Of a stretch of 37,142 nucleotides of DNA, positions 11,636 through 33,476 are shown one piece after another (within the stretch, counting starts at the first letter, position 1; the number at the start of each line of letters is the position of its first letter). The position numbers were made by a program, and so were the translations under genes. Source of the DNA: a virus; IMG/VR virus record IMGVR_UViG_3300038428_000132, positions 1 through 37,142 of that record. One strand, 5' to 3'. A model generated the notes under the pieces. It did no database searches. It was given only the letters and a program-made list of their open reading frames with translations, and was not told the origin of the DNA.

Positions 11636-13420
11636 TCAGTATCTCTGACTGCCATAGAAATCTCCAATCGGAAGACCGGTCACTTCATCGTACTCAATCT
11701 CGTCTTCCGGCTCGGCCTCAACAACCGGTGCAGGCGGCTCAACGTAAGCATACGCACCTTGACCAAAGATCATGTCAAACTGCGTCCGCTCCCTAGCCTC
11801 ACGCCGACGATCAATCGCCTCTTTCTTATCCTCCGTCCGACTTCCTTGATGGGCATATTCTACGAAGCGCGAAATAGCGTCGGGGATGTCTCGCTTTCCG
11901 CGAGACGAAATGAACTCTCGAATGACCTCTTCCACCTCCGTCTGCATGTTGCTTGCAAAGAACAGACGGTGATTTTTGTACAACGGAACAAGTCCTTTAA
12001 TCCTGTTTTCTTTTGCGTTCTTCTCGCCTTGCCCGAGTGGAATCCAAACGATCTGCGGTAGTTTGATTCCTTGCCGCTCGGCTGAGGCGTAGATGTCGGT
12101 CTTCAACCATCGTGCCCCAACTGACTCCTCTATCCCCATGAGTTGAACTTCCGGGTAATCGCGGATGGCACTCACGATGCTCTCTGGCATTTCCTCTGGT
12201 CGAAACCTACCACGAATGATGTCTTTAATCCACAGAGCTTCGTTATGCCATGCTCCGATGGCAATGACTGTAAAGTCGCGCCCGCGTTTGTCGGAGTAGG
12301 CTAGGTCTGCAATCGCAAACGTCTTGGCATACACTGGCATCTGAGTCCAATCAATGAAGCATTTCAGAAGCCCTTCGCGGGTAAAATCCACTTCCCCGGC
12401 CAAGGTTGGGTTGTTTAAGTACTGACCAGAGTGGACCTTCGGGTCCATCAACATATCGTCGTGCAAAAACTTGAAGTCCCAAATCTCTGTGTCAAGATAC
12501 TCGCAATCTTCCTCCCGACTATCCAAAGTCGGAGCAAAGTACTTGCACTGCAATTCTCCAACACCGTCTGGCCCGGTCCCTTTCAACCACCATGCCGGTC
12601 GGCACAGGTAATGGAAGCCCTTCACTTCGTCCTTGAAGTTTCCGTAGACAACTTCCTGACCGATGCCCCAAACGAACATCAACTTGCCGTAGGTGTCATC
12701 GTTCTCGTACCGCGTTCCGATTGTGTCGCGGTAGCCCCACTTCGGCAGCAATTTGTGACTCATGTTGAACCGGCGGTGAATAACCACCACACGCTGCGAG
12801 CTACGAATGTTCTGGTCAGTGAGGATGTCATCATTCTTTAAGACATCGCATCTCCATCCAGAAGTAGCCGATTCAATCGAGATCGCATACACCGTAGGGT
12901 CTGGGATATGCCGACCAGTCTTGTTCCACTTCGGATTCTTTCGCGCCGGAGTGATGAAGTAATCTTCTGCGCCCTTATCGTTCTCACAGACGCAGTGCTC
13001 TGTGAACAGCCGTTGAAACATCGTTGGATGAGCCTTATCATTCCAAATAGGCTCTCCACGAGCATCACGCTCTCCATCCCAGCCCGACACAGTGAAATAA
13101 CTTTTAATCGTCCCTACAATGGCTTTTGCAAGATCAGAATCGCCAGTCTGAATCGCAACCCGTACAAGAGGGAAGTTAATGATCCAATTAACGGCGTCCA
13201 GCGCGTCAATCGTCGTCTTCCAGCCATGGCGCGGAAACAGCAACAGACGTTCTCGAATCGTGGACTGTTGCTCGATAGGCTTGTCCGGGTCCTTCTGAAT
13301 GAAGAACTCGCAAATCTCACGATGGATAGGCCGCAACGGTACGTCGCACAACTCCGTGGCCATCAGCCATAGATTGGTCTGATACCGCCTACGAAGTTCG
13401 TTGCGTTCCGATTCAGTCAT
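11636..13420 (-). CDS. terL: Terminase large subunit
   Basis: 594 aa; Walker-A-like LFPRHGWKTT, Walker B CDVLKNDD, RNase-H-like IADLAYS...DFTVI and KRDIPDAISR. Confidence 0.92.
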   Translation of the reverse strand: MTESERNELRRRYQTNLWLMATELCDVPLRPIHREICEFFIQKDPDKPIEQQSTIRERLLLFPRHGWKTTIDALDAVNWIINFPLVRVAIQTGDSDLAKAIVGTIKSYFTVSGWDGERDARGEPIWNDKAHPTMFQRLFTEHCVCENDKGAEDYFITPARKNPKWNKTGRHIPDPTVYAISIESATSGWRCDVLKNDDILTDQNIRSSQRVVVIHRRFNMSHKLLPKWGYRDTIGTRYENDDTYGKLMFVWGIGQEVVYGNFKDEVKGFHYLCRPAWWLKGTGPDGVGELQCKYFAPTLDSREEDCEYLDTEIWDFKFLHDDMLMDPKVHSGQYLNNPTLAGEVDFTREGLLKCFIDWTQMPVYAKTFAIADLAYSDKRGRDFTVIAIGAWHNEALWIKDIIRGRFRPEEMPESIVSAIRDYPEVQLMGIEESVGARWLKTDIYASAERQGIKLPQIVWIPLGQGEKNAKENRIKGLVPLYKNHRLFFASNMQTEVEEVIREFISSRGKRDIPDAISRFVEYAHQGSRTEDKKEAIDRRREARERTQFDMIFGQGAYAYVEPPAPVVEAEPEDEIEYDEVTGLPIGDFYGSQRY

Positions 13421-22584: not shown

Positions 22585-22660
22585 TGGTGGACCCGACAGG
22601 CATCGAACCTGCAACCCCCTGCGTGCAAGGCAGGTGCTCTCCCGATTAAGCTACAAGCCC
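22585..22660 (-). tRNA. tRNA-Ala(TGC)
   Basis: 76 nt; anticodon arm CCTGC-CTTGCAC-GCAGG; GTTCGA T-loop; G3-U70; encoded CCA. Confidence 0.95.
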
Positions 22661-22924
22661 ATGAAAAACCGAAAGAGCCGCAAAGCATCACTGCCTGCGG
22701 CTCCCTTGCTCATCCCGGCACAGTAGGCTGGGGATCGTTCAACTGCAACTGAAATTGATTACCTTGGTTTCCCTGATTCTCTTGCTTCCCTTGTGTACAA
22801 CCACTTTCGTTTCTTCTCTCTATGTATTATTCCATAAATCGGGGTTCCTATCCTACTGTTTTCCGGGCATACCCATGAATCTAAAGCAAATATAGTTTTT
22901 CTTTGGCACACCTTCACTTTTTGC

Positions 22925-22953
22925 TTGACAACGGGCTAAAAAAGGAGTAAACT
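22925..22953 (+). promoter_or_regulatory. sigma70-type promoter
   Basis: TTGACA-17 nt-TAAACT; homologous to 29945-29973. Confidence 0.7.
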
Positions 22954-23218
22954 GGCCTTTAACGACGCAAAGCGAAATACCAGACTAGGTAATATATGAG
23001 TCAGTAGGTAGCTAACATACTGTCTTTACTTAGTCTTACGAAGCCAGACAACGCTAACTTCGTCAAAACCTGACTTGCAAAGCTCTTGCGTGTTCATGCA
23101 TCGTCCGGCGTTCACGCACCCATGAACGTTCATTATGTGTGAACATCCGAGAAAAATGAACAGGAAAGACTTGCATCCGCACAGCACAAAAGGCTTGCAG
23201 TCACACCACAGAAAAGGC

Positions 23219-23247
23219 TTGACATACGCCGAAGGGTATGGTAATCT
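23219..23247 (+). promoter_or_regulatory. sigma70-type promoter upstream of the tRNA-Pro/tRNA-Gly cluster
   Basis: TTGACA-17 nt-TAATCT; CATAC/GTATG inverted repeat overlaps the spacer. Confidence 0.6.
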
Positions 23248-23374
23248 GTAGGTTGATGGAAAGAGAGGCGGGAGGCCGACAGACGCGGGCTTGACCTCAG
23301 CGCCGGGTCGCCGGGTCGCCGCTTGAAAAGCTGACCTTGGCAGAGTTAGATAGACTACTGCGATAGGAGAACCC

Positions 23375-23473
23375 GTGGTAATTGCTTTAGCAGGAGCAAG
23401 TTTGGGAGCATTCTTCTGTGCATGTGCAGTCGTAGGAATTGTGTACTTTAGGATGCGCTCTCATCCAGTATAA
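23375..23473 (+). CDS. 32-aa membrane peptide
   Basis: AGGAG RBS, GTG start; MVIALAGASLGAFFCACAVVGIVYFRMRSHPV; ends 3 nt before tRNA-Pro. Confidence 0.55.
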   Translation: MVIALAGASLGAFFCACAVVGIVYFRMRSHPV

Positions 23474-23476
23474 TAA

Positions 23477-23551
23477 CAGGGCTTAGCCAAGCGGTATGGC
23501 GCGTGGCTTGGGACCACGAGGTCGGGGGTTCGACTCCCTCAGCCCTGACCA
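23477..23551 (+). tRNA. tRNA-Pro(TGG)
   Basis: Acceptor CAGGGCT/AGCCCTG, A73, CCA; anticodon arm CGTGG-CTTGGGA-CCACG. Confidence 0.95.
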
Positions 23552-23567
23552 ATTTTCGGAGGATCGT

Positions 23568-23717
23568 ATGTCAGATTTCGGATTCACGGAAGTAACGAAA
23601 GAGCAGACACAGGTTCTCGAAGCTCTCAGAGAACGCTTTGAAAACCTCGAACGTTTCCTCACCATAGTATGCCCCGACCGCGAGCGTCCGGCAGCACAGG
23701 CCAGCCCTTGCCGCTGA
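23568..23717 (+). CDS. 49-aa helical protein; possible truncated Acb2/Tad1-like hairpin protein
   Basis: GGAGG RBS; MSDFGFTEVTKEQTQVLEALRERFENLERFLTIVCPDRER...; family similarity is by eye only. Confidence 0.4.
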   Translation: MSDFGFTEVTKEQTQVLEALRERFENLERFLTIVCPDRERPAAQASPCR

Positions 23718-23895
23718 AGCCGACCATAACTTGTTGCAACGATCACGATGACGCCGGAAGACTAGGTGACTGATGGAAAGTATTCGTCTTTATCTCCGCT
23801 TGATCTGGCTAAAAGTGTGCATCGACTTCACCGACTTGCGTGTGATCCTCGTCATGCTCAAGTTGAAGTATCTTCGCTGGCAACTCCACAAGTAA

Positions 23896-23970
23896 GTGGG
23901 CGTGGTATAGAGGTTGTGCCTCAGTCTTCCAAACTGAAGAGGCCGGGTTCGAGTCCCGCCACACGCTCCA
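23896..23970 (+). tRNA. tRNA-Gly(TCC), structurally degenerate
   Basis: Anticodon arm TCAGT-CTTCCAA-ACTGA, TTCGAGT loop, U73-CCA; two acceptor-stem mismatches and a C-C pair in the T-stem. Confidence 0.8.
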
Positions 23971-25337: not shown

Positions 25338-25667
25338 TTAAGGTCCGGGCACGGTCGCAGAGGTTTCATTGGAGGGTACGCTTTCTTGGGAGGAAGAATC
25401 AACTGCGGTAAGATAATAGAAGTACGTTGTGTAGCTGTCTACATACGTATCCGTCCAGCCTGCTCCGACGCCTATCTTATAGTAGAGGGTTTCTTTTCCT
25501 GATTGTAAACCACGATAGACATTGTAACCTATGAGATTGGGGCTGTTGCTCTGAGTCCATGACAACTGCACATTGTGCACAACGACTAGCTGAAAAGACG
25601 CCGTTGTTGTTGCAGCCACAGACGGCCGAAAGCACAGCAGTAAAAAAAGCAGGAGTATCTTTTTCAT
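25338..25667 (-). CDS. Secreted fibronectin-type-III-like protein
   Basis: Start MKKILLLFLL (ATGA-coupled); VQLSW...GYNVYRG...YFYYLTAVD..QESVPSNE. Confidence 0.8.
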   Translation of the reverse strand: MKKILLLFLLLCFRPSVAATTTASFQLVVVHNVQLSWTQSNSPNLIGYNVYRGLQSGKETLYYKIGVGAGWTDTYVDSYTTYFYYLTAVDSSSQESVPSNETSATVPGP

Positions 25668-25948
25668 CGTACTGACACCGTTACAACGAATTTGCCTGAG
25701 ACTATTGGAGTGCCTTGAATAAGTCCCGAGTAGCTTGCAACAAGTCCATTTGGCAGTCCAGAGATTCTCCACACACACGGCCCACGGCAGCCAGTCGCAG
25801 TTAACTGAAATCTATAAGGTTTGCTTTCTACAGCGACAGGCAGCGATGAAGTAGTGATAGAGACACTAGGCAGAATCTTTGCGGACCCACCTAATGTCTC
25901 TATTAACAAAACCGACGCCAACAAGATTATTGTAAATAATCTCATCAC
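25664..25948 (-). CDS. Secreted putative-Ig (He_PIG-like) domain protein
   Basis: Signal peptide; ITTSSLP...LTATG...W...GLPNGL...GLIQGTP. Confidence 0.75.
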   Translation of the reverse strand: MMRLFTIILLASVLLIETLGGSAKILPSVSITTSSLPVAVESKPYRFQLTATGCRGPCVWRISGLPNGLVASYSGLIQGTPIVSGKFVVTVSVR

Positions 25949-26322
25949 TGGCCTACGATTTTAAACTGTGCTTTCTGATTGGAGCCGTCTGTGACAGTAA
26001 TTGAGAACGTATAGGTCCCGGCAGTAGTCGGCATCCCACTCAGAACTCCGCCCGAAGTAAGAGTTAATCCAGCAGGCAGTGTAGAGCCGGTAGTAACGGA
26101 CCAGACGTAAGGCGGAATCCCTCCGCTGGCAGTGAAGGTTACGGAGTAGGTTTGAGCCGCTACAGCCTCAGGCAACGGTGAAACATTGGAAATAACCAGC
26201 GGAGCCACGACGGTCAGCGTAAATTGCTTGGTGGCGGTGTATCCCCCGGCGGCGATGATGACGGCGGTAGTCTCGAACGCCAACAAAGCCCCCAACAAAA
26301 GTGATCTGAAAATCTTCTTCAT
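25945..26322 (-). CDS. Secreted putative-Ig (He_PIG-like) domain protein
   Basis: Start MKKIFRS after AAGGAGG; TFTASGGIPPYVWSV...LPAGLTL...GVLSGMPTTAGTYTFSITVTDG. Confidence 0.85.
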   Translation of the reverse strand: MKKIFRSLLLGALLAFETTAVIIAAGGYTATKQFTLTVVAPLVISNVSPLPEAVAAQTYSVTFTASGGIPPYVWSVTTGSTLPAGLTLTSGGVLSGMPTTAGTYTFSITVTDGSNQKAQFKIVGQ

Positions 26323-26335
26323 TTCAGCCTCCTTG

Positions 26336-26343
26336 AATTTTAT
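26336..26343 (+). repeat. Target-site duplication, left copy
   Basis: AATTTTAT abutting the TIR; identical to 27471-27478. Confidence 0.9.
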
Positions 26344-26404
26344 GGGACTTATATACATGACTCCCGTGCTTGAGACTAGCATCCATAAGGCCGATTTGCT
26401 CGCT

Positions 26405-27121
26405 TTACAACCGACACACGCGACACTTCATTTCATTGAGCGGGTCGCGCCTTGTGTCCTTTGGAATGTCGCCTGCCTCAAATCTCAGCCTCAGTCCCTC
26501 CACAGAAGCGGGCCAGGTATCTCTTCCTGGCGAGCGGAAGCTGTGACCAGTGAGCTTTTCGAGCCGCTCACCTTCAGCCCATCCAAGCGGATTGCGCTTC
26601 CAAAATTCCCACCACTCGATAAGCCTTTGGAAGAAGCAGAGGTCGCAATCCGTTCTCTTGGGGATAGTCACTCCGTGGCGTTGATTGATAGCCAAGACTT
26701 CCCTCAATCCACAACCCAAACGCTTCAAAGGGAAGTCCATAATCACGCCAGGAATGTCAAGGTAATCCCCGCCTTCCCTGTCAGGCTCGTCGGCGCGAAT
26801 CCCGACGTAAGATGTACATTCGCCTTGTTTGGAGAGCCAAGCTGCGTAAGGTTCGATCTTGAGAAGTCGAGTACACCACCTTTGCCACCAGTTCGGGAGA
26901 GCCATCTGTTTTTCAATGAGTCCAACAAGCGTTCCCCCAATTATGGGAAGGAGCGGCTTTCCGAGGATGCGACCAAGGTTAAGCCAGTGCTCAAACATTT
27001 CAGGAGGCTCGTTGCCTGTAGGAGTGCAGACGTATGTGTAATCTCTCGGCTCAACTTCGGCCAAAAGCAGGGCCATTGCTGTGCTGTCCTTCCCTCCACT
27101 AAGAGCTACGACGTGTCGCAT
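26405..27121 (-). CDS. PAPS-reductase-family (PP-loop) protein
   Basis: VVALSGGKDSTAM, RWCTRLLKIEP, VGIRADE, RTDCDLC and C-terminal CRVC. Confidence 0.85.
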   Translation of the reverse strand: MRHVVALSGGKDSTAMALLLAEVEPRDYTYVCTPTGNEPPEMFEHWLNLGRILGKPLLPIIGGTLVGLIEKQMALPNWWQRWCTRLLKIEPYAAWLSKQGECTSYVGIRADEPDREGGDYLDIPGVIMDFPLKRLGCGLREVLAINQRHGVTIPKRTDCDLCFFQRLIEWWEFWKRNPLGWAEGERLEKLTGHSFRSPGRDTWPASVEGLRLRFEAGDIPKDTRRDPLNEMKCRVCRL

Positions 27122-27221
27122 TTTTCCTCTTTTTCGGATTGTTCGTTTTTGCCTTTCGCTTCGGATGATAGGCTAGAACAACGTCTGTTATACGGTCCAA
27201 CACAGGCGGAACTTTTTTCAT
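27099..27221 (-). CDS. 40-aa basic peptide inside the cassette
   Basis: MKKVPPVLDRITDVVLAYHPKRKAKTNNPKKRKNATRRSS; overlaps the PAPS-reductase start. Confidence 0.45.
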   Translation of the reverse strand: MKKVPPVLDRITDVVLAYHPKRKAKTNNPKKRKNATRRSS

Positions 27222-27224
27222 CGC

Positions 27225-27392
27225 TTAACCCTTTGTCGCTTTCTTCGGCTTATTGGCTTTGGCCGACGTGGGACGTTCAACTTCATAGCGAACTTCAAGA
27301 ACAAGTTCGGAGCCATCGCAGTGAGCCAATAACGCTTCGCCACAATGGGGGCAGGAGATATGAAATATTGAGTCCTGAGATTTTTTGTTCAT
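27225..27392 (-). CDS. 55-aa Zn-ribbon-like protein inside the cassette
   Basis: AAGGAG RBS; CPHCG; ATG overlaps the transposase-relic TGA. Confidence 0.5.
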   Translation of the reverse strand: MNKKSQDSIFHISCPHCGEALLAHCDGSELVLEVRYEVERPTSAKANKPKKATKG

Positions 27393-27424
27393 GCGGTCAA
27401 CTCCTTGTAGGTGATTCGCTTGCC
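27389..27424 (-). pseudogene. C-terminal relic of an IS1595-family transposase
   Basis: Reads GKRITYKELTA* about 25 nt inside the TIR; matches the GKRLTYxEL terminus typical of these transposases. Confidence 0.7.
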
Positions 27425-27470
27425 AAATTTCCTTTGTTTTCAACGTGAGGGAGTCATGTATATAAGTCCC

Positions 27471-27478
27471 AATTTTAT
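27471..27478 (+). repeat. Target-site duplication, right copy
   Basis: AATTTTAT abutting the TIR; identical to 26336-26343. Confidence 0.9.
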
Positions 27479-27488
27479 ATACTCCCCC

Positions 27489-27517
27489 AGCTTATCATAC
27501 AACGGAAAAAGAGTCAA
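27489..27517 (-). promoter_or_regulatory. sigma70-type promoter reading into the cassette and Ig genes
   Basis: TTGACT-17 nt-TAAGCT with a TG extension. Confidence 0.65.
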
Positions 27518-27636
27518 TACTTAATTTCACCAAACGCTGAAAAGCTGAAACAAGCGCCCGCGCCGGGTCTGTTTGTTATACCCGCACACAATAAGCAGAT
27601 TCTCCCACCCTTCGGCTCCCCGGAGAAGGAACCCCC

Positions 27637-27945
27637 CTACCAGTGAGAAGGAATGCCCATCATAACAGTCATTTCGTGCAATTTCCTACGGCTGTCTGTT
27701 ATATCAGCTATAAGTTGACAATCTCCCCGTCTAAGGTTGACAAAGCAGTCATCCGGCGTTAGGACAGCGCCGTACTTCGTTTTTTCTGCGCATGGGACCC
27801 ATGGACGTAGGCTGCAACGTCCGGCGTCGCTCTGCGTGGCAGGGATCGCCGGGAAAGGGGCCCCTAAAGTGTTCCTGCTCGATAAACCTCTCAGGTTTAG
27901 TGTGCAGTTCTTGGCTCCGCAGGCGAAGTATACAGCGTTCGACAT
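27637..27945 (-). CDS. Cys-containing hypothetical protein
   Basis: 102 aa; GAGGGGG RBS lies within the hairpin CCCCC-GACTGA-GGGGG. Confidence 0.5.
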   Translation of the reverse strand: MSNAVYFACGAKNCTLNLRGLSSRNTLGAPFPAIPATQSDAGRCSLRPWVPCAEKTKYGAVLTPDDCFVNLRRGDCQLIADITDSRRKLHEMTVMMGIPSHW

Positions 27946-28148
27946 AACCCCCTCAGTCGGGGGATTTTGCGTTAGGGAATATCATGATGTAATTTTTGCT
28001 ATGGATGGGACCCATGTTGGACAACGTTTTTGCTACGTCTTGCGTAGTATGAGTATGGCAGTCCGCCGGGCGGCACTGACCAAAAATGTCATAGGGGTAG
28101 GAATCCCCGCCGGTGGTGCCCCAAAGTGTCACAAAGTAGGGCCCGCCC

Positions 28149-28610
28149 CGACGCCATACGTTGCCAGTGACACAAAGTGTCTAGCCAGCGTAAACGACGC
28201 ATTACGAGGTACTTACAACGTCATGCGTTGCCTTGCGCCGCCGGTGAGCGTAGACATAGAGCGTGTGTAGGCTAAGCGATGGCCACGTCGCCGGACGACG
28301 ACATACGACGCATGACGCCGTTCGACGACGGCGATGCGTGCATCGCTGACGCCAGACGTTGTAAACGCTGTAAAATGATGTAATTACGCTGCTGAATGGA
28401 GCGATGTAGCCCTGCTACGTCTGGCGTTAGGCTAGGAAGTATGACTATGACAAATAATGTCAAGCACGCCCGGCGACGACGCCATACGACGCATTACGTT
28501 GTTCTGACGTGGTTTATGTATGATACTGGCGCTATAGCTACGCCTGACTCCGCATGACGTTGTAAAGGCTGGCTAGCTTGCGTAGAATGGCCGGAGCAAT
28601 CGACGCATGA
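28149..28610. repeat. Cluster of ACGACGCAT(T/G)ACG-type short repeats
   Basis: Copies at 28194-28206, 28305-28317, 28486-28498 and 28601-28610; 15-bp inverted pair at 28213-28227 and 28551-28565. Confidence 0.75.
28416..28467 (-). promoter_or_regulatory. Degenerate third copy of the promoter/leader cassette
   Basis: GTGCTTGACATT identical to 29966-29977; downstream TAGCCT..ACGCCAGACGTA; poor -10. Confidence 0.4.
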
Positions 28611-28824
28611 CTCCGCTCCCCGGCTCTGTCTCTCACTGGAAGACTACGGCTTTTCCGGGGCGGCTGCTCATTGTGCAAACTGGCGGGGAAAGCGATTAGA
28701 AGGGGTCGCCGTGAGGCGTGGAGGGGCCTAGCGTGCGTTGTGCGTCGCCAGACGATGTAGGATAGCCAAAAACAACATGGCTTCCCATTTAGACAGCAGC
28801 GTGAGCCAGATAACTCCAGCAAAA

Positions 28825-31208: not shown

Positions 31209-31267
31209 CGCAGACGGCACCCGCATACTGTGCGGGTCTAATGCGGCTAGCCGGTCCGAAGCCCGGC
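31209..31267 (+). ncRNA. Twister ribozyme 1 (permuted, type-P5-like)
   Basis: CGCA-GA-CGG..P1 ACCCGCA/TGCGGGT..UAA-UGCG-GC-UA-GCCGG-UCCG-AA-GC-CCGG; T1 CGG/CCG; predicted cut 31239/31240. Confidence 0.9.
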
Positions 31268-31291
31268 AATTTAAAACCGCTGAGGTGGCCC

Positions 31292-31615
31292 GTGTATACT
31301 ACAATCAATTTCAAAACGAAAAAGCAACTCAAGGAAGCCGTGAAAAACTGGAACGATCATTTGAAAGCAATCGCCGATCCGGTGTTTGCTCTTACTGTTG
31401 GCCCCGAAGCTGCACTGGCGCGTCCTGTGCGCATCTATCAGCCCGGACCATTTGGTGGCAACGAACCAACTGAAGGCACGACTTGCTTGGAAGGTCCACA
31501 CTATTGGGCAGCCCGGCCGCAACCACCAACGTATAGCGGAACGTATCCTCCTGCGGCGCATACGTGGTATGCGCAGGCCGAATTGAAGAACGGCATCGTG
31601 GTGAAAGTGAGGTAG
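31292..31615 (+). CDS. Small phage protein
   Basis: GTG start after GAGGTG; MYTTINFKTKKQLKEAV...YQPGPFG...LEGPHY...HTWYA. Confidence 0.75.
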   Translation: MYTTINFKTKKQLKEAVKNWNDHLKAIADPVFALTVGPEAALARPVRIYQPGPFGGNEPTEGTTCLEGPHYWAARPQPPTYSGTYPPAAHTWYAQAELKNGIVVKVR

Positions 31616-31686
31616 CCTATGCCCGGCCACGATTGTATCGCGGTCGATTTGGACCCGATGGCACGCTGTTGGAGATTCGGAAATAG

Positions 31687-31767
31687 CGCAGAGTCAAGGC
31701 GGAGTCCGGCATACAAGATGTTGCGGTATGCCCCGCCTTAATGCGGCAGGCCGGTGACAAGCCCGGC
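31687..31767 (+). ncRNA. Twister ribozyme 2
   Basis: P1 AGGCGG/CCGCCT; T1 GUC(A)/(U)GAC; predicted cut 31739/31740. Confidence 0.92.
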
Positions 31768-31787
31768 CACGTATCATAGGGTGATTT

Positions 31788-31913
31788 ATGAAAACAGATA
31801 CAACAAAGGATACATGGAGAACGAAAGCATTTCCCTGCCAGTATCCACGTTTCGATGAAGCAACCCTGAGAGGCGAAATATTTGCAGAGACAGGGAAGAA
31901 ATATACTAAGTAA
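31788..31913 (+). CDS. 41-aa hypothetical protein
   Basis: AGGGTGA RBS; MKTDTTKDTWRTKAFPCQYPRFDEATLRGEIFAETGKKYTK; fills the gap between ribozymes 2 and 3. Confidence 0.55.
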   Translation: MKTDTTKDTWRTKAFPCQYPRFDEATLRGEIFAETGKKYTK

Positions 31914-31924
31914 GTCATAGAGTT

Positions 31925-32010
31925 CGCAGAGTGACGCACCTTAGCCTCTACTACTAGGCGTATAATTCATGGCGGGTGCGATAATGCGGCAAGCCGGTTA
32001 CAAGCCCGGC
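31925..32010 (+). ncRNA. Twister ribozyme 3
   Basis: P1 CGCACC/GGTGCG; T1 GUG(A)/(U)UAC; predicted cut 31982/31983. Confidence 0.9.
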
Positions 32011-32026
32011 TACGCGGAGGTGATAC

Positions 32027-32347
32027 ATGGTTACAAGGATACCAAATAAGTACAAAACTGTGGCAGATGAAGTAATTGCTGCATATACTGAAGAAACACG
32101 TAATCTTCATTTTCGTGCATTTCAAAGTGTGCCGTCCGACGTGGCAGTTAAGATCATGGCAAAGGCTGTCCCGGATGGCTATAACAACTTTACAGCGGAC
32201 TTGTTAGGACGCATCAAAGGCGACGTTTTGCTTGCCCGCGAATACAGTGTGTGTGTTTATGTCGAACCAAACTCTATTGAAGAACACGAGCTTGGGGAAG
32301 ATGAATACAACATAATTGGTGGAAAACTTCGTCTTTGGTGGGATTAG
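32027..32347 (+). CDS. Hypothetical protein
   Basis: 106 aa; GGAGGTGA RBS directly after ribozyme 3. Confidence 0.75.
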   Translation: MVTRIPNKYKTVADEVIAAYTEETRNLHFRAFQSVPSDVAVKIMAKAVPDGYNNFTADLLGRIKGDVLLAREYSVCVYVEPNSIEEHELGEDEYNIIGGKLRLWWD

Positions 32348-32351
32348 CATT

Positions 32352-32433
32352 CGCAGAACACAGTATCTATACACTGGCTAGCGTGTCCTAGTCTATGAGT
32401 GTTGTAATGCGGCAGGCCGGTTGTAAGCCCGGC
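32352..32433 (+). ncRNA. Twister ribozyme 4
   Basis: Long G-U-rich P1 with an inner hairpin; T1 ACA/UGU; predicted cut 32405/32406. Confidence 0.88.
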
Positions 32434-32446
32434 AATTAGGAGGAAC

Positions 32447-33079
32447 ATGACTAAGAAACAAGCTGAAAAGATTGTAGGAAAGATTTACGTTAACAATAAG
32501 TTGCCGTGCGGGTCATACACACTGCCCTGTGATTCCTGCCATGTGGGAAAAACTCTCCGCAGTAATCCTAACTCGCCTTGCGCTCATTGCTATGCAAGGA
32601 AGGGCTATGCAAAAGCTTTTGCAAAAAATGTTGATCCTTTTCGTGCTTTCAAATTGAAAGCACTTCAGCATCCACAATGGCAAGAGGCTATGGTTACAAT
32701 GTTAAAAGGCAAGTCGTACTTTAGATGGCATGATGCAGGCGATCTTCAGAGCGTAGCACATCTACGGCAGATAATTTCTCTTGTTAATGCAACCCCTTGG
32801 TGCCAGCATTGGATGCCCACCAAGGAGTTTAATGTAGTGAGAAAATTTCTTGCTGAGGGTGGAACAATCCCTACTAACCTGACAATCCGGTTGTCAGCTT
32901 ATATCATAGATCATGGTTGCAAGCCAAAGGGCCTTACTCAATTAACAACCTCTACTGTACAGCGTTATTCCGCTCCTATCGGCTTTGCATGTCCGGCTCC
33001 CAATCAAGGTGGACGTTGTGATACATGCCGTGCTTGCTGGTCAAACACAGTTAAGAATGTATCATATTATATCCATTAA
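32447..33079 (+). CDS. GP88-like Cys-rich protein
   Basis: LPCDSC...CAHCYA, FRWHDAGDLQS, HWMPTKE, NLTIRLSA, CPA...CDTCRACW. Confidence 0.75.
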   Translation: MTKKQAEKIVGKIYVNNKLPCGSYTLPCDSCHVGKTLRSNPNSPCAHCYARKGYAKAFAKNVDPFRAFKLKALQHPQWQEAMVTMLKGKSYFRWHDAGDLQSVAHLRQIISLVNATPWCQHWMPTKEFNVVRKFLAEGGTIPTNLTIRLSAYIIDHGCKPKGLTQLTTSTVQRYSAPIGFACPAPNQGGRCDTCRACWSNTVKNVSYYIH

Positions 33080-33138
33080 CGCAGACGGAACCCGCATACT
33101 GTGCGGGTTTAATGCGGCAGGCCGGTTGTAAGCCCGGC
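33080..33138 (+). ncRNA. Twister ribozyme 5 (chimeric, T1 mismatched)
   Basis: 5-prime 39 nt are 37/39 identical to copy 1; P4 part identical to copies 4 and 6; T1 CGG vs UGU cannot pair; begins right after the upstream stop codon. Confidence 0.8.
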
Positions 33139-33161
33139 CACGCTCTTCATGAGAGGGTACA

Positions 33162-33395
33162 ATGAATTATATCATAAACTTTTTGGACTGGCTTCACGAG
33201 ACTTTCCCAATCGAGAATACAATCATAACATTCTTAGACTGGGTACAAACATGGTTGTGGCGCTATCATCATCATTTGTTTACAACCAATGATTTTTTTA
33301 ATGACTGTATTACAGTTCAAGGATGGCTAACAGTATTAGTTGTAGGTTTATCATTCTATGAATTGTACATCGTCTTTTTAAAACCTCGCAAGTAA
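33162..33395 (+). CDS. Small membrane protein
   Basis: 77 aa; GAGAGGG RBS; hydrophobic C-terminal segment. Confidence 0.6.
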   Translation: MNYIINFLDWLHETFPIENTIITFLDWVQTWLWRYHHHLFTTNDFFNDCITVQGWLTVLVVGLSFYELYIVFLKPRK

Positions 33396-33476
33396 CGCAG
33401 AACACAGCATTCATACACCGGCTAGCGTGTCCTAGTCTATGAGTGTTGTAATGCGGCAGGCCGGTTGTAAGCCCGG
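33396..33476 (+). ncRNA. Twister ribozyme 6
   Basis: P1 CAGCATTCATA/TATGAGTGTTG; T1 ACA/UGU; 77/81 nt identical to copy 4; predicted cut 33449/33450. Confidence 0.9.

Follow-up and report, generated by a model that had tools for sequence, protein, structure and literature searches.

The window analysed here, meaning the whole stretch of DNA, is the 37,142-nt IMG/VR virus record IMGVR_UViG_3300038428_000132 (estimated completeness 39%). Profile matches identified phage genes for a terminase, a portal, a major capsid protein, GroEL and a ligase. This study concerns a 1127-bp element in the window (1143 bp including both target-site duplications, TSDs), which carries a gene related to 3′-phosphoadenosine-5′-phosphosulfate (PAPS) reductase. 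Its features are summarized in Table 1. Read along the minus strand, the element consists of a terminal inverted repeat (TIR), a 24-bp spacer, a transposase relic, open reading frames (ORFs) of 55 and 40 aa, the PAPS-like gene, a 39-bp spacer and the second TIR. The TIR sequence GGGACTTATATACATGACTCCC occurs once on each strand, and the two copies are complementary at 22/22 positions. No further TIR copies with up to three mismatches were found in the window, where 0 were expected from 100 shuffles, and the TIR pair with its TSD is perfect and unique there. The original prediction had described perfect 22-bp TIRs, an exact 8-bp A+T-rich duplication and a length of 1127 bp, together with 11 C-terminal codons of a transposase, two small ORFs and a PAPS-reductase-family gene. 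All of these are present in the element as claimed.

Table 1 Features of the element and its immediate surroundings in the window.
Feature	Position	Strand	Remarks
Ig-like He_PIG phage gene, downstream	25945-26334	-	ATG at 26322; AAGGAGG at 26334-26328
Target-site duplication, left copy, AATTTTAT	26336-26343		identical to 27471-27478
TIR, transposase-distal end (right inverted repeat, IRR)	26344-26365	+	inward-facing ATG at TIR positions 14-16
Element-spanning antisense ORF, 363 codons	26357-27448	+	ATG inside IRR; 98% of element
PAPS-reductase-like cargo gene, 238 aa	26405-27121	-	PF01507, phrog_424
40-aa basic ORF (..VLDRITDVVLAYHPKRKAK..)	27099-27221	-	overlaps start of PAPS-like gene
55-aa ORF, CPHC..HC and basic tail	27225-27392	-	starts at conserved ATGA overlap with transposase stop
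Transposase 3′-end relic, GKRITYKELTA and stop	27389-27424	-	36 nt; blastn and C-terminus matches
TIR, transposase-proximal end (left inverted repeat, IRL)	27449-27470	-	complementary to IRR
Target-site duplication, right copy, AATTTTAT	27471-27478		identical to left copy
Promoter candidate of the original prediction, TTGACT, 17 nt, TAAGCT	27488-27516	-	in sequence; consensus scan calls none

We compared the window with other contig stretches, each designated by an L label (L007, L039, L248 and so on). Exact copies of the 22-mer TIR were found in viral contigs (36) and in contigs of metagenome-assembled genomes (MAGs) from soil or groundwater (8). Elements delimited by paired TIRs measured 305-2587 bp, and most had 8-bp duplications. 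Among them, the longer elements have a transposase gene, whose product of about 306 aa matches PF12762 and PF12760 in Pfam, and the sibling transposases scored 195-203 bits against NCBIfam NF033547 (cut-off 75). As this 22-bp TIR also delimits elements that encode PF12762/PF12760/NF033547 transposases, the ends of the window element are regarded as ends of the insertion sequence (IS) family IS1595. The end consensus of this lineage is GGGAATTAT, and the window end reads GGGACTTAT. The ISNwi1 subgroup is suggested by the ISfinder end consensus, which we take to be ggnnatTAT and which GGGAATTAT fits. Annotated IS1595 elements on plasmids of Methylocystis and Roseomonas have similar ends, GGGGATTATGTATTTGAC; the lineage transposase is only about 42-44% identical to the nearest annotated plasmid copies. 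A TIR pair around a TnpB gene (L028) had four mismatches and no duplication and was excluded as a member.

The transposase relic agrees with this assignment. The C-termini of the L039 and L006 transposases read ..GKRITYKELTA or ..KRRITYKELTA, and the window relic is identical to L039. By blastn, the relic DNA matched the 3′ end of the L039 transposase gene at 35/37 nt, and L016, L005, L034, L023, L026 and L046 gave weaker matches. The AAGGAG at 27406-27401, the ribosome-binding site of the next ORF, sits inside the relic, in the last transposase codons (K-E). Exactly these 11 codons may have survived the deletion because they hold this site. Derivation from IS1595, as proposed in the original prediction, was thus borne out: the TIR matches IS ends, the 8-bp duplication is shared with 57 relatives and the relic aligns with transposases. 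Neither of the two outcomes named beforehand as contrary to it, a TIR matching no IS ends and a relic that cannot be aligned with IS1595 transposases, was obtained.

We classify the element, on the basis of its sequence, as a non-autonomous IS1595 derivative of the mobile insertion cassette (MIC) type, the ISfinder term for such transposase-less derivatives (PMC3129680). An autonomous IS1595 element encodes a DDE transposase whose catalytic domain is ISXO2-like and whose N terminus bears a zinc ribbon; the window element retains 11 C-terminal codons only. It shares its TIRs with transposase-encoding elements and has the 8-bp duplication, as a derivative of the family does. IS ends, passenger genes, a target duplication and the lack of a transposase give it the structure of a mobile insertion cassette. 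MITEs (miniature inverted-repeat transposable elements) have a size under about 600 bp and are non-coding, and the window element, with 1127 bp and three ORFs, is not one of them.

To define the lineage, a degenerate TIR, GGGANTTATATANNTGACTCCC, was scanned in viral contigs, and it was found in at least 120 viral stretches. When only paired TIRs accompanied by an 8-bp duplication (no more than one mismatch) were accepted, 55 distinct elements remained, and addition of the window element, L095 and L007 gave 58, with validated sizes of 253-2500 bp. A full transposase is present in 25/58 and a truncated one in 4/58 (L206, L180, L142 and L007, the first three retaining 125-166 aa); 29/58 have none. 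The TSDs of validated elements are 83% A+T, compared with 43% in their flanks, and this A+T richness would explain the preference for intergenic sites beside start codons. Similarity of the ends ceases at position 22, a figure partly biased by how the elements were found. The transposase genes show pairwise DNA identities of 66-86%, and the TIRs differ by 0-3 bases. Such diverged transposases with near-constant TIRs indicate that the lineage is old and its ends constrained. The MAGs with the exact TIR are three Acidobacteriota together with representatives of Nitrospinota, Gemmatimonadota and Casimicrobiaceae, and in them the TIR copies lie among ordinary chromosomal genes. The repeat shared with Acidobacteriota and other soil bacteria provides a host lead for these phages.

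The identifiable cargo comprises DNA methyltransferases in 12 elements, PAPS-like enzymes in four, Mom-like enzymes in three and a QueD-type PTPS in one. Pfam families of DNA modification were matched by 14/144 cargo ORFs but by only 2/147 ORFs drawn at random from the flanks (odds ratio 7.8, P=0.0016); with three hidden control hits assumed, the enrichment still gave P=0.03.

Several contigs hold more than one member. Two different transposase-less cassettes (605 and 867 bp) stand head to tail at L013:477-1956, and the duplication CTATATTG is present on all three junctions, an arrangement that resembles repeated target use or tandem insertion. L205 has a methyltransferase cassette and a Mom-like cassette (1658-2462 and 11961-12588). 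Two separate members per phage contig were also seen in the contigs behind the label pairs L010/L019, L031/L166, L030/L189, L141/L177 and L188/L207. A shared insertion locus of L205 and L174 was considered and discarded, as their flanks do not align. On a Roseomonas marmotae plasmid (L274:5977-8456), an annotated IS1595 transposase with the similar end GGGGATTATGTATTTGAC precedes two further genes, one hypothetical and one with a PIN domain; this cultured bacterium thus probably has a further relative with passengers.

Homologs of the 40-aa basic ORF (43-53% identity) were found in every element with a full-length transposase, at or near the transposase stop codon. They follow the pattern LD.I.D.VL.Y.PKPK.K..KKR.RR. 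The ORF was absent beside PAPS homologs located outside IS elements. It matched no family in Pfam or NCBIfam, and the ESM Atlas gave only unnamed clusters of hypothetical proteins. We interpret the 40-aa basic ORF as a second, conserved backbone gene of the IS1595 lineage. Comparison with L039 and L248 revealed that the 55-aa Cys/His ORF has been inserted into the small ORF, separating its conserved start from its body. The 55-aa ORF gave zinc-ribbon matches below threshold only in Pfam and nothing in NCBIfam or the ESM Atlas.

The relatives also point to the origin of the cassette. L023 has the order transposase, small ORF and PAPS-like gene, which is the parental arrangement. L248, an 844-bp contig from another sample that is cut at both ends, encodes a PAPS protein 93% identical to that of the window, located after a transposase 3′ end and a small ORF. 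The ends of L007 and L037 are 98% identical to the window at 26344-26388 and 27427-27470 (44-45 bp). Their cargo is a different PAPS-like gene, 26% identical to the window gene, and their deletion also differs, the first 28 transposase codons being joined in frame to the small ORF. The 791-bp cassette L095 has diverged TIRs, the duplication ATTTTTTG and a PAPS homolog (56% identity) as its sole gene. PAPS homologs were found at 83 other loci, and all of these except L095 (82 loci) are without TIRs. Since homologs elsewhere lack both the TIRs and the small ORF (L095 excepted), the gene is regarded as an ordinary phage gene that was captured. These comparisons suggest that PAPS-like genes were captured several times by the IS1595 lineage from among ordinary phage genes, and that the window element arose by internal deletion from a passenger-carrying IS.

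We then characterized the predicted cargo protein. The 238-aa protein matched PF01507 with an E value of 3e-7, over residues 3-114 only, and phrog_424 with an E value of 2e-27; typical phrog_424 members have about 160 extra N-terminal residues. Homologs at E<=1e-40 numbered 3743, and a sequence search of the PDB found no relative. In an alignment of 18 homologs, the PP-loop SGGKDS and five cysteines (Cys83, Cys159, Cys162, Cys233 and Cys236) were invariant. An AlphaFold model had a pLDDT of 90, and the closest structures by Foldseek were CysH (PAPS reductase), LarE, TtuA and NcsA, with TM scores of about 0.48. With enzymes of the CysH/DndC/LarE/TtuA type the cargo protein shares the PP-loop SGGKDS, a Rossmann-like ATP-pyrophosphatase fold and conserved cysteines. 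CysH, LarE, TtuA and NcsA are adenylating enzymes, and several of them are Fe-S sulfur transferases. The cargo is probably an ATP-dependent enzyme of the Fe-S type that would act on DNA or on a nucleotide by adenylation or sulfur transfer. By analogy with the DNA methyltransferase and Mom-like cargo of the lineage, it most likely modifies the phage DNA or a nucleotide precursor and thereby protects against host restriction.

A single nucleotide separates the insertion from the downstream Shine-Dalgarno sequence of an Ig-like gene, whose AAGGAGG starts nine nt beyond the left TIR, and this ribosome-binding site was left intact. The cassette genes are co-oriented with the flanking phage genes and are tightly packed or overlapping. 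Among transposase-less relatives, identified cargo was co-oriented with the downstream phage gene in 14/17 cases, as judged by naive ORF calls. A consensus scan of the minus strand detected no terminator-like site in or just upstream of the element. The promoter proposed in the original prediction received no support from the scan: TTGACT-17-TAAGCT is in the sequence, but its −10 hexamer is weak, and the candidate failed the scan criterion and was not called. Because the genes are co-oriented and packed or overlapping and no terminator-like site follows them, the cassette would most likely be expressed by read-through from upstream phage transcription, which would continue into the Ig-like gene.

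The surroundings of the insertion have features of their own. About 1.3 kb upstream (27479-28824) contains no convincing gene; overlapping ORFs occur there on both strands, without Pfam matches. A few terminator-like hairpins were called in this region, and it may hold regulatory or RNA elements. On the other side, three consecutive small secreted-looking proteins are encoded on the minus strand after the cassette (25338-26322), of which at least the first is He_PIG Ig-like. Distant relatives that lack the cassette have this trio as well, located behind a divergent intergenic region.

Exact-protein look-ups in JGI, ENA and Logan recovered this phage from many samples, and the insertion was present in every case. 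All 20 fetched contigs were 99.8-100% identical to the window and had the identical 1143 bp at the same site. The insertion is fixed in a near-clonal, widespread phage population. Given the identical insertion in all 20 contigs, the delivery cannot be called recent, as the original prediction had it. No close phage relatives were found in IMG/VR through a 280-aa DUF932 protein, and the Ig-like protein gave a 43% match only. Relatives with Ig genes 65-73% identical and no cassette were rejected as empty-site alleles, as their upstream DNA could not be aligned.

We consider it highly probable that the element is an IS1595-derived mobile insertion cassette that lost its transposase by internal deletion and was inserted by a transposase of its lineage, with a passenger that is likely DNA-modifying. 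The anatomy of the element, the family to which its ends belong, the relic, the family-level identity of its cargo and its fixation in the phage population are shown by the data; we infer the source of the transposase, the transposition event, the route of expression and the biochemical function as follows. In the ancestor, the transposase would have come after IRL, followed by the small basic ORF, the PAPS-reductase-like passenger and IRR. An internal deletion would have removed nearly all of the transposase gene, leaving the ends, 11 codons, the backbone ORF and the passenger, and the Cys/His ORF would have been inserted ahead of the small backbone ORF. The ends would then have been recognized by a DDE transposase from this lineage, its source being a full-length relative (resident in the host or in a co-infecting phage) or an earlier stage of the element. 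Insertion into an A+T-rich 8-bp target just upstream of the ribosome-binding site of the Ig-like gene would have duplicated AATTTTAT. Read-through phage transcription would express the cassette and then enter the Ig-like gene.

Several results weigh against this interpretation. No PF12762 match was found anywhere in the 37-kb record, so no transposase of the family is encoded there, in a record that is 39% complete. Exact searches for the reconstructed empty site, the check set by the original prediction, gave no match in viral or metagenome contigs. No second copy of the exact cassette was found at another site; the next PAPS homologs are 93% identical (L248) and then at most 80%, without TIRs. 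With neither a second copy nor an empty site, transposition of this unit is not demonstrated. The consensus scan of the minus strand called no promoter-like site in or just upstream of the element. Naive ORF calls underlie the counts of orientation and enrichment. As for the passenger, it scored 17.3 bits against the DndC model TIGR03183 (cut-off 290). The catalytic cysteine of CysH lies in a C-terminal ECGLH-like motif; the cargo protein ends in KCRVCRL without such a motif, and its best structural matches reach TM scores of only 0.48. It fits neither CysH nor DndC nor any other characterised subfamily.

That the cassette is known at one site, fixed in its population, would also suit decay in situ, in which a complete passenger-carrying IS1595 inserted itself and later lost its transposase, so that the present cassette never moved. 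Deletion intermediates exist among the relatives (L206, L180, L142 and L007), the closest relative of the cargo, in L248, remains located behind a transposase 3′ end, and IS DNA is believed to be purged from phages (PMC11602168, PMC3429520). However, the 29 members without a transposase have intact TIRs and TSDs at unrelated target sites, and a 605-bp cassette occurs at different targets in two phages, L013 and L234, 74.5% identical over the full length. These members indicate, if only indirectly, that such units move or persist as units. In addition, the window element retains two perfect TIRs. We regard decay in situ as a possible but less probable history.

The lineage has a second unusual property, a stop-free antisense frame. 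In 7034 codons of 23 transposase genes, the in-frame triplets TTA, CTA and TCA, which are stop codons on the opposite strand, occurred only three times (0.043%), whereas they made up 1.575% of 38100 codons in flanking ORFs. The depletion is 37-fold. The same trinucleotides were undepleted out of frame, and other rare A-ending codons were only 2-5-fold lower in transposase genes. The PAPS gene of the window has 0 such triplets in 238 codons, compared with 2.2% in eight confident window genes (P=0.0045). Cargo genes overall were undepleted; the cargo of the window, L023, L163, L204 and L225 contained no antisense stops. TIR positions 14-16 at the transposase-distal end are ATG in 24/31 elements and TTG in 4/31, and the ORF beginning at this start codon covers at least 92% of the element in nine elements. 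In three copies of the plasmid IS1595 outgroup, the background rate of TTA, CTA and TCA was already 0.5-0.9%.

The long open frame raised the question of which strand is coding. If the antisense ORF were the real gene, the minus-strand genes would be its shadows, and the 363 open codons from an ATG in the TIR, together with the family-wide avoidance of antisense stops, are what such a gene would display. The antisense translations, however, were 41% alike between elements, hardly above the 38% of the closed antisense frame, while the transposases were 67.5% identical. Moreover, the minus-strand PAPS protein has thousands of homologs, Pfam and PHROG matches and a confident predicted fold. An antisense gene is therefore very improbable, and the conserved feature of the antisense frame appears to be its openness, not a protein sequence. 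The proposal that no transposon is present, the repeats being due to chance or assembly error and the PAPS gene resident as such genes commonly are in phages (phrog_424, 82 loci without TIRs), is scarcely credible in view of 0 expected chance TIR matches, the identical 1143 bp in at least 20 independent assemblies from different samples, the same TIR and 8-bp duplications around IS1595 transposase genes in dozens of contigs, and the transposase relic in the element.

Full-length elements located between co-directional genes were found in both orientations, three the same and five opposite. A tentative idea is that the lineage has adapted to phage genomes, shuttling anti-restriction genes without polar effects: translationally coupled genes on one strand and, on the other, a stop-free frame opened by the ATG in the TIR might keep phage transcripts covered by ribosomes, and so let them escape Rho-dependent termination, in either orientation. 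The window element would have kept this architecture despite the loss of its transposase.

Two other features of the window are mentioned here. Five Twister-P5 ribozyme matches above the Rfam gathering score (38-55 bits) lie among small ORFs within about 2.3 kb of the plus strand (31209-33476), which is unusual for a phage. Three tRNA genes are located in 22585-23970, namely Ala-TGC (−), Pro-TGG (+) and Gly-TCC (+).

Elements of the IS1595 family known as 'transporter IS' carry passenger genes (Siguier, Gagnevin and Chandler 2009, as cited in PMC3129680). The 8-bp duplication, short TIRs starting GGG..TTAT and passengers inside the ends are shared between them and the window lineage, and the full-length siblings of the window element encode the ISXO2-like DDE transposase with N-terminal zinc ribbon seen in IS1595. 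Unlike these elements, the window element has no transposase, and its lineage has a second conserved gene, small and basic, as well as DNA-modification cargo and an open antisense frame, and most of its members come from viral contigs. The MICs, for example MIC231 from Bacillus cereus (De Palmenaer et al. 2004, as cited in PMC3129680), resemble the window element in having IS ends around one or more passengers, no transposase, a target duplication and presumed mobilisation in trans. The window element differs from MIC231 in belonging to IS1595 and not IS4/IS231, in residing in a phage genome and in keeping a relic and a backbone ORF. Viral MITEs (PMC11602168) are likewise non-autonomous, intergenic TIR elements in viruses; they are small and non-coding, whereas the window element has 1.1 kb and three genes. 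In that survey, only 0.01% of viral sequences contained MITEs, and neither IS1595 nor cargo or passenger genes are named in its main text. Neither phage-borne IS1595 cargo cassettes nor the antisense frame were found described in the searchable literature.

Insertion sequences have been reported to be rare in phages and quickly purged (PMC11602168, PMC3429520). The presence of one IS1595 lineage in at least 120 viral stretches contrasts with this rarity. The lineage borne by phages is apparently a large, undescribed variant of IS1595 that moves DNA-modification genes between soil phages. This suggests that phages exchange counter-defence genes by transposition as well as by recombination. As the cassettes are small and naturally delimited, their cargo could be screened for anti-restriction activity. 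If the antisense frame does prevent polarity, it would explain how transposons are tolerated in the tightly packed operons of phages.

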